From: Laetmonice hystrix | Lineage: Eukaryota | DNA length: 64,000 nucleotides | Direction of reading: 5' to 3' | Assembly: GCA_965235115.1 (NCBI GenBank) | Contig: OZ249436.1 | Span: forward strand, 1,862,001 to 1,926,000 | Part shown: piece by piece, positions 52,617-54,054 of the stretch | Layout: each line of letters starts with the position of its first letter | Numbering within the stretch: the first letter of the stretch is position 1 | The notes under the pieces: model-generated | Seen by the model: the letters and a program-made list of their open reading frames with translations, nothing else | What the model was told of the DNA's origin: nothing | The model's database searches: none | Position numbers and translations under genes: made by a program

Positions 52617-53795
52617 TCAGAGTCGCTTTGCTTTACGTGGTCGGAGTCCACAATGTGGTATTGGGGTGGTGTCTGTGATGGACTCGGAGTCGCTTTGCTT
52701 TACGTGGTCGGAGTCCACAATGTGGTATTGGGGTGGTGTCTGTGATGGACTCAGAGTCGCTTTGCTTTACGTGGTCGGAGTCGACAATGTGGTATTGGGG
52801 TGGTGTCTGTGATGGACTCAGAGTCGCTTTGCTTTACGTGGTCGGAGTCCACAATGTGGTATTGGAGTGGTGTCTGTGATGGACTCAGAGTCGCTTTGCT
52901 TTACGTGGTCGGAGTCGACAATGTGGTATTGGGGTGGCGTCTGTGATGGACTCAGAGTCGCTTTGCTTTACGTGGTCGGAGTCGACAATGTGGTATTGGA
53001 GTGGTGTCTGTGATGGACTCAGAGTCGCTTTGCTTTACGTGGTCGGAGTCGACAATGTGGTATTGGGGTGGCGTCTGTGATAGACTCAGAGTCGCTTTGC
53101 TTTACGTGGTCGGACACAGAGTCGCTTTGCTTTACGTGGTCGGAGTCCACAATGTGGTATTGGGGTGGTGTCTGTGATGGACTCAGAGTCGCTTTGCTTT
53201 ACGTGGTCGGAGTCCACAATGTGGTATTGGGGTGGTGTCTGTGATGGACTCAGAGTCGCTTTGCTTTACGTGGTCGGAGTCCACAATGTGGTATTGGGGT
53301 GGTGTCTGTGATGGACTCAGAGTCGCTTTGCTTTACGTGGTCGGAGTCCACAATGTGGTATTGGGGTGGTGTCTGTGATGGACTCAGAGTCGCTTTGCTT
53401 TACGTGGTCGGAGTCCACAATGTGGTATTGGAGTGGTGTCTGTGATGGACCCAAGTCGCTTTGCTTTACGTGGTCGGAGTCCACAATGTGGTATTGGAGT
53501 GGTGTCTGTGATGGACTCAGAGTCGCTTTGCTTTACGTGGTCGGAGTCCACAATGTGGTATTGGAGTGGTGTCTGTGATGGACTCAGAGTCGCTTTGCTT
53601 TACGTGGTCGGAGTCCACAATGTGGTATTGGAGTGGTGTCTGTGATGGACTCAGAGTCGCTTTGCTTTACGTGGTCGGAGTCCACAATGTGGTATTGGAG
53701 TGGTGTCTGTGATGGACTCAGAGTCGCTTTGCTTTACGTGGTCGGAGTCCACAATGTGGTATTGGAGTGGTGTCTGTGATGGAAACAATCTTCAC
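52617..53795 (-). repeat. 67-bp minisatellite (about 17 copies) derived from the MRPS11 C-terminal coding sequence
   Basis: The minus-strand unit TCCATCACAGACACCAC(T/C)CCAATACCACATTGTGGACTCCGACCACGTAAAGCAAAGCGACTCTGAG reads [21 protein letters not shown]. It matches the real exon at 53882-53817. Confidence 0.95.
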
Positions 53796-53816
53796 ATAAC
53801 TGGCGAGTTCTCCTCA

Positions 53817-54054
53817 TCAGAGTCGCTTTGCTTTACGTGGTCGGAGTCCACAATGTGGTATTGGAGTGGTGTCTGTGATGGAAACAATCTTCACGCCAGC
53901 CATCTCAAGACCTTTTATCGACGCCTGTCAACATAACCATGGAGACACAGAATTTATCACATTGACTGTGGGGTTTTTATTATCCCATCCCCTACAGGGG
54001 GATGGGATCTTCAGATTGTACGGTTTCGTCTTCCCTATTATTATTCTTTGCGTC

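Follow-up and report, generated by a model that had tools for sequence, protein, structure and literature searches.

Copies of the last MRPS11 codons form a probably neutral minisatellite behind the stop codon in Laetmonice hystrix

Introduction

Short tandem duplications within genes are common, and variable number tandem repeats (VNTRs) occur in 3' untranslated regions (3'UTRs); to our knowledge, the units of 3'UTR VNTRs are not copies of the C-terminal codons of their own gene. In the window analysed here, a stretch of 64,000 nt of the Laetmonice hystrix genome, the gene for the mitochondrial ribosomal protein uS11m (MRPS11) is followed directly behind its stop codon by an array whose units read as copies of its own last codons. 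This locus raises the question of how such an array is born and tolerated at the end of a coding sequence, and whether it is carried in the mRNA, affects the protein or exchanges sequence with the exon from which it came. All coordinates are those of the window.

Results

The MRPS11 host gene

The coding sequence of the host gene is made up of the following segments:

57706-57617, 57065-56840, 56687-56557, 56258-56230, 55965-55891 and 55706-55641, minus strand: the six upstream coding exons of MRPS11, with AG/GT throughout
53924-53817, minus strand: the coding part of the last MRPS11 exon, source of the repeat, with an AG acceptor and the TGA stop at 53819-53817

The seven coding exons join into an intact open frame of 238 aa, with AG/GT at all six introns between them. 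When the peptide of the last exon was used to search solved structures, uS11m was the best match (E 3.2e-11) and accounted for the top 11 of the 74 matches, while one 43-aa exon used as a homologue query returned a single unnamed match. The product is spliced into one frame, carries an N-terminal extension and has a C-terminal S11 part that is closest to mitochondrial uS11, as expected of uS11m/MRPS11. A probable non-coding first exon (58020-58100, minus strand) begins at a AAAATGGCGG motif, which we take to be YY1-like, and an ATG within this motif starts a 12-codon upstream frame on the same strand.

Architecture of the array

Behind the stop codon, the following features were mapped:

53816-53796, minus strand: UTR stub 1, the 21 nt after the real stop, opening with a second TGA
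53795-53784, minus strand: a 12-nt restart, equal to the four codons upstream of the unit
53783-52617, minus strand: the minisatellite, 17 units of 67 bp, defined by Tandem Repeats Finder and sequence comparison
53114-53085, minus strand: a 30-nt partial unit (the 3' part of the unit) after copy 10
52616-52596, minus strand: UTR stub 2, 21 nt, a diverged counterpart of stub 1 that passes directly into the unique 3'UTR
52595-52177, minus strand: unique 3'UTR sequence, in which AATAAA at 52481-52476 and at 52182-52177 are candidate poly(A) signals

A preliminary description of this DNA had proposed a 67-bp unit made of the last 21 codons plus TGA in about 17 copies, preceded by the stop, a UTR piece and a restart and followed by a diverged twin of that UTR piece. 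Both the unit and the copy number were right, and the order holds in coordinates and content. Sixty-six coding nt (the last 21 codons and TGA) make up all of the unit except one extra G, which is its 67th nt; within the last exon it extends from 42 nt inside the exon as far as the stop. Tandem Repeats Finder returned a period of 67 with matches of 96-99% and scores of 933 and 1295, and copy 5 is 66 nt long. A search of the 64-kb window for the 14-mers of the unit found none elsewhere in it. The 12-nt restart sequence, which is found only in the last exon and ahead of copy 1, is the mark of a first, 99-bp duplication, within which the array of 17 units sits nested. The junction G completes a GACTC-T-GAGTC inverted repeat, and it is possible that this G had a fold-back origin; an inverted repeat of this kind, noted post hoc, is expected about once in 64 cases by chance.

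Variation among the units

The ACT codon of the exon is present in copies 1-6, 12 and 14 and is replaced by ACC in the remaining 9 of the 17 copies, and GGA>CGA occurs in copies 11, 12, 13 and 15. This per-copy comparison agrees with the initial reading of ACT in proximal copies, ACC mostly in distal ones and GGA>CGA in some. At least six distinct unit variants stand in ordered blocks and the number of differences from the exon increases with distance from it (Spearman rho 0.66, p 0.004, n = 17 copies), which bears out the stepwise expansion suggested earlier. Across all units 16 of 1054 sites (1.5%) differ from the exon, and the proposal that the satellite was born from conserved coding DNA is supported, with a local origin.

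Whereas TGA is retained in 14 of the 17 copies and 10 of the 17 encode the unchanged peptide, 7 of the 17 have lost the stop or carry a missense change. The missense changes, which are absent from the exon and lie in distal units, are Gly>Arg in four units, where it falls on a conserved glycine, and Thr>Ala in two. Judged by sequence, the copies thus appear to decay in the manner of non-coding DNA.

Public sequencing runs and transcription of the array

Four public runs (X1-X4) contain the stretch, all from one sample, perhaps the assembled one, and their contigs were compared over 53650-54050. In X1-X3 a contig runs across the exon-intron border and these three runs therefore behave as DNA. 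A 78-nt contig covers stub 1 and the restart with 0 differences in both X1 and X2. Summed contig depth on the unit reached 1302, 229 and 1393 in X1, X2 and X3, against 55, 23 and 40 on the unique exon flank, a measure that gives no copy number and shows only that the unit repeats in the raw data. The contig across the exon-intron border departed from the window at 1 in 118 nt, and the one reaching the previous exon did so at 1 in 30 nt. On its shorter side, each junction record offers 12-30 letters, fewer than the 31 required to call a place bridged. Within the compared interval, a short element bearing GGGATGGG/CCCATCCC (53975-54050), which lies 50 nt upstream of the acceptor of the last MRPS11 exon and is adjoined by an (ACT)12 run, is a very high-copy interspersed repeat with a summed depth of more than 100,000 in X1-X3.

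In X4, a 719-nt contig leaves the last exon at its acceptor and enters the previous exon, agreeing with 55646-55675 at 29 of 30 letters; nothing covers the intron bins 53930-53971. From this spliced junction and the empty intron we infer that X4, which bears no such label on record, is RNA. The 719-nt contig fits one copy per coding exon plus 30 nt (647 = 617 + 30), a fit that is consistent with this structure and is not proof of it. Two X4 records (25 and 27) cross the tandem junction, at depths of 622 and 914 compared to 37.5 for the coding contig. Another X4 contig passes from the unit through stub 2 into the unique UTR, with 30 of 30 letters matching 52579-52608, that is, the last 13 nt of stub 2 and the next 17 nt. 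This contig continues for 255 listed letters from 52608, of which the first 30 were compared; colinearity of all 255 would carry transcripts beyond the first AATAAA, at 52481. The strand of the transcripts is not readable from the contigs. Stub 1, covered in X1 and X2, is without cover in X4 and in the DNA-like X3, and since X3 comes from the same sample and has the same gap, the gap in X4 is no evidence. The mRNA probably runs through the array: the proposal that about 1.2 kb of stop-containing copies lie in a transcribed 3'UTR is supported by the RNA-like X4, which holds both the tandem junction and sequence beyond the array. The spliced X4 contig and the intact frame further suggest that normal splicing and the protein are kept.

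On the minus strand the first AATAAA is at 52481, followed by others at 52182 and 51954, so that the nearest one is indeed beyond the array, as had been noted; none of the 12 variants of the poly(A) hexamer tested occurs within the array. With the array, the predicted 3'UTR measures about 1340 or 1640 nt; it would be about 140 or 440 nt otherwise. The RNA fold of three units was unremarkable (z -1.62; 12 of 200 shuffles as good).

Could the array be an artefact of assembly, produced by a looped graph or by collapsed haplotypes? Sampled words are only 43-67% present in the listed runs and no listed contig record spans 53650-54050, as would suit such an artefact; however, the unit variants, at least six, stand in ordered blocks, and junction contigs and high unit depth recur in separately assembled DNA-like and RNA-like runs. 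An artefact is therefore very improbable and we regard the array as confirmed to be real, with its exact copy number as assembled.

Divergence of the UTR stubs

Stubs 1 and 2 match at 15 of 21 sites, a likeness that marks them as homologous (chance p about 3e-5). The six sites at which they differ are all transitions, four from G/C to A/T and two in the reverse direction. The coding copies that the stubs flank are far closer to each other: the restart and copy 1 are identical to the exon over 78 of 78 nt, and the last copy differs from it at 1 of 66 nt. With stub divergence set to its lower 95% bound (0.11), independent evolution of stubs and copies of equal age still gives p 9e-5 for the exon against copy 1 and 0.003 for the exon against the last copy, and when only third codon positions are set against the stubs Fisher's p is 0.005 and 0.046, respectively. 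This contrast between diverged stubs (6 of 21 sites) and a homogenised interior (units at 1.5%) is best read as the trace of an older duplication, in which the repeated part, including the exon, was homogenised and the unique edges were left out, although the age of the array is here read from 21 bases of stub. The pattern points to concerted evolution that would take in the functional exon.

When the 21 nt outside the edges of 10 other arrays in the window were compared, 1-9 of 21 sites matched and no twin stubs at the same period were found, in a control that is not like for like and in which at least four rows are disturbed by indels. Strict neutrality and free exchange sit uneasily with the survival of stub 1, because a crossover between the exon and any copy would delete it.

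The C-terminus of the protein

It had been suggested that the copies could serve as gene-conversion templates for the C-terminus. The contrast of diverged stubs with identical coding copies lends indirect support to conversion, but a C-terminal change caused by the array did not emerge. The motif HCGLRP of this protein takes the form HNGCRP in 70 of 101 parsed homologues (a further 8 of the 109 hits could not be parsed); among the 101, C at the second place occurs in one and L at the fourth in none, and the four best-scoring homologues likewise deviate at this motif. Departures from conserved sites were no denser in the repeated 25 residues (5 of 20) than outside them (9 of 40; p 1.0; 112 homologues from the named search), and with 49 representatives they numbered 1 of 9 in the repeated part and 0 of 10 elsewhere. 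Molecular drive on the protein is accordingly unsupported, the closest homologues deviating too, and from the alignments the array appears to have no detectable effect on the protein sequence.

The repeat-prone setting

The window holds 44 tandem arrays with a period of at least 9, which cover 27.5% of it, and its GC content is 0.34-0.56 per 2-kb bin (0.465 at 52001-54000). One of these arrays also lies on MRPS11:

57322-57698, minus strand: a second MRPS11 array, three copies of a 126-bp unit that includes the start codon with the remainder of the first coding exon and the GT donor

The outer end of copy 3 of this array is diverged, with two substitutions and a 2-nt insertion in about 20 nt. 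Its copies encode the start codon and the targeting peptide, copies 2 and 3 differing from copy 1 at three sites, and copies 2 and 3, which have an AG just upstream, could serve as alternative first coding exons of MRPS11. Both ends of the MRPS11 coding sequence are therefore tandemly copied.

The neighbouring gene (42286-51621, minus strand), which from reading its sequence we take to be PDIA3-like, is an intact 12-exon gene for a 492-residue protein disulfide isomerase that ends in KNEL; its three minisatellites are intronic, none on exons, and one of them (43160-43479) ends 20 nt before an acceptor. In the gene-dense span from PDIA3 to MRPS11, two of the five arrays overlap a coding edge compared to 1.04 expected at random (p 0.28), and the chance of at least one array on a stop is p 0.056. 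The random model placed seeds at random and discarded wholly coding ones, and the test concerns just five arrays and was designed after the data had been seen. Enrichment of arrays at exon edges in the window was thus not significant. A survival filter therefore suffices to account for the position of the array: a duplication seeded in coding sequence persists if it includes a stop or a splice site, because the copies are then outside the frame. Most likely, the array is a neutral by-product in a repeat-prone genome.

Several other features were observed in the window. A tRNA-Val(AAC) gene (52029-52101, plus strand) lies on the opposite strand between the 3' end of MRPS11 and the start of PDIA3, with the second of the candidate poly(A) signals of MRPS11 some 75 nt away. 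A short open frame (34750-35210, plus strand) has a repetitive, Cys/Asp/Gly-rich N-terminal part, PPSYEEAV near its end and an acceptor-like site before it, and the apparent last exon of another gene (27200-28000, minus strand) has an open frame that ends near 27220. At 23990-25052, a 42-bp minisatellite stands in a large inverted arrangement that switches strand at about 24461 to 24466 and has short 10-bp repeats at both outer ends, giving it a foldback-type look.

Discussion

The reading that we prefer, with a probability of roughly 0.7, is that of a locally born, probably neutral minisatellite that was seeded at the end of the coding sequence and in which exchange homogenises the units and the exon. 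Its history would have begun when a 99-bp stretch, comprising the last 25 codons with the stop and the following 21 nt of UTR, was duplicated in tandem, the two copies meeting at a 2-nt GT microhomology. Inside this duplication a shorter 67-bp unit would have arisen, joined via one extra G. Slippage or unequal exchange would then have raised it to 17 copies while variants spread block by block; where the 30-nt partial unit is joined, TCC is the shared sequence. The survival of the array is explained by the first copy, which preserves the reading frame, and by the position of all extra copies behind the stop. Repeated exchange would hold the units close to identity with the working exon. The two UTR stubs, being unique and unable to join the exchange, would drift apart, and selection on the exon would filter what passes from the array to the gene.

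How far this exchange reaches, and how old the structure is, can be read in two other ways. It is possible, though not probable, that the working exon of this essential, single-copy mitoribosomal gene and its satellite have evolved in concert for long, the array being a conversion partner and a bank of donor alleles, and that stop codons are a preferred seed for arrays here; the stubs would then be diverged by about 0.1-0.5 per site and the Gly-to-Arg units would be held back only by selection on the exon. Alternatively, the whole structure may be recent, and stub 1 may owe its six transitions to one error-prone template switch or may derive from a divergent allele or from another copy of the gene's end. 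The few differences between units and exon (16 of 1054 sites) would suit a young array, as would the clustering of the six stub differences, all transitions, beside the junction and the likewise diverged outer end of the first-coding-exon triplication; error-prone synthesis occurs at rearrangement junctions. Ordinary alleles, however, do not explain the stub divergence, because the contigs differ from the window at 1 in 118 nt and 1 in 30 nt, far under 29%, and no diverged second copy of the exon at 85% likeness or more is found among the run contigs listed. The stub changes also run in both directions, unlike a single deamination tract, and a recent origin of the whole appears unlikely.

Readings in which the copies do something for the gene fare less well against the same data. 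Were the array kept for a function in the mRNA, it could supply one binding site many times over, or 1.2 kb of spacing, and its copy number could adjust mRNA stability, translation of uS11m or localisation to mitochondria; its transcription in X4 along with the spliced gene, the persistence of stub 1 and the lengthening of the UTR to about 1340 or 1640 nt are in keeping with such a role. Yet the fold has no notable structure, units are broken without pattern, such arrays occur both in introns and between genes in this genome, and random seeding with survival accounts for the position, so that we find an mRNA function decidedly improbable. The unit also contains a CAG acceptor-like and a GT donor-like site that lie 36 nt apart in the same phase, by which the internal GT of the exon might be spliced to the AG of a later unit to give in-frame repeats of 12 C-terminal residues. 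The contigs of the four runs, which drop rare forms, list no such splice joint, the loose ends of X4 in the exon and array are those of the normal splice and stub 2 only, and the donor is weak and idle in the native exon; use of the units as cryptic exons is therefore extremely improbable.

The preferred reading, a neutral minisatellite homogenised with its source exon, can be set beside known repeats of genes' own sequence. In the available text of PMC12954441 (Genome Biol Evol 2026), avian exon stuttering on chicken dot chromosomes involves 20-187 bp of exon in 1-44 copies, and the MRPS11 array (66 bp, 17 copies) falls within both ranges. Like it, stuttering is strictly local: part of a coding exon is copied in direct tandem beside its source, in surroundings rich in local repeats (PMC12954441). 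The avian screen, as far as that text goes, concerns exons versus introns only, and the terms 'stop codon', 'UTR' and 'last exon' are absent from it. The copies there lie in the adjacent intron, whereas those of MRPS11 follow the stop and turn up in an RNA-like run, and the GC-rich chromosome setting described there contrasts with the MRPS11 region (0.465) of an invertebrate host.

Closer in host are the mirages of lancelet, reported for Adh3, troponin C, the globins BflGb6 and BflGb9, and PGBD5 in PMC3087553 and PMC3902484. These, too, are minisatellite-like tandem duplications on a gene landmark in a marine-type invertebrate, and the MRPS11 3' array shares with them the local tandem duplication of the gene's own sequence. 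As described there, the normal mRNA and protein are unaffected by mirages and the cluster evolves in concert (PMC3087553, PMC3902484); in the globin mirages the edges are excluded from homogenisation (PMC3087553), and in MRPS11 a homogenised interior likewise lies between diverged edges. Mirages, however, span an exon-intron boundary and are spliced out, whereas the 3' array spans the stop codon and no intron boundary; the array at 57322-57698 does span such a boundary and, going by those accounts, is a mirage proper. A third relative is the 37-bp VNTR in intron 7 of human F7, in which, according to PMC1557585, the first unit overlaps the functional signal and the later units are silent spares because the signal encountered first is the one used, just as in MRPS11, although the signal in F7 is a splice donor with intronic copies and that in MRPS11 is the stop codon. 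Because its copies carry a stop rather than a splice site and lie in the UTR rather than in an intron, the MRPS11 3' array falls outside both named classes.

In the literature covered (main texts, mostly open), neither a stop-codon-bearing exon array in a 3'UTR nor repeats in MRPS11 were found, although terminal-exon cases may be among the 115 genes listed for PMC12954441 or in the supplement of PMC3087553. Even so, the rarity implied by the preliminary description was overstated: exon-derived tandem arrays are already described in the available texts of PMC3087553 and PMC12954441, and the window is full of minisatellites. If young and neutral, the array would be a tidy curiosity; it is lifted above the routine by its RNA support and by a hint of homogenisation between an essential exon and the satellite born from it. 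It offers a natural test of whether a coding exon can undergo homogenisation with non-coding copies of its own sequence next to it, and of how much unstable repeat is tolerable in a 3'UTR. Stop-codon arrays can also mislead gene annotation and short-read estimates of expression at the end of a gene. The MRPS11 3' array is the stop-codon version of the repeat instability seen in exon stuttering and mirages, and it widens exon stuttering, described so far for introns, to include the stop codon, behind which copies escape splicing and probably remain in the mRNA of a housekeeping gene.
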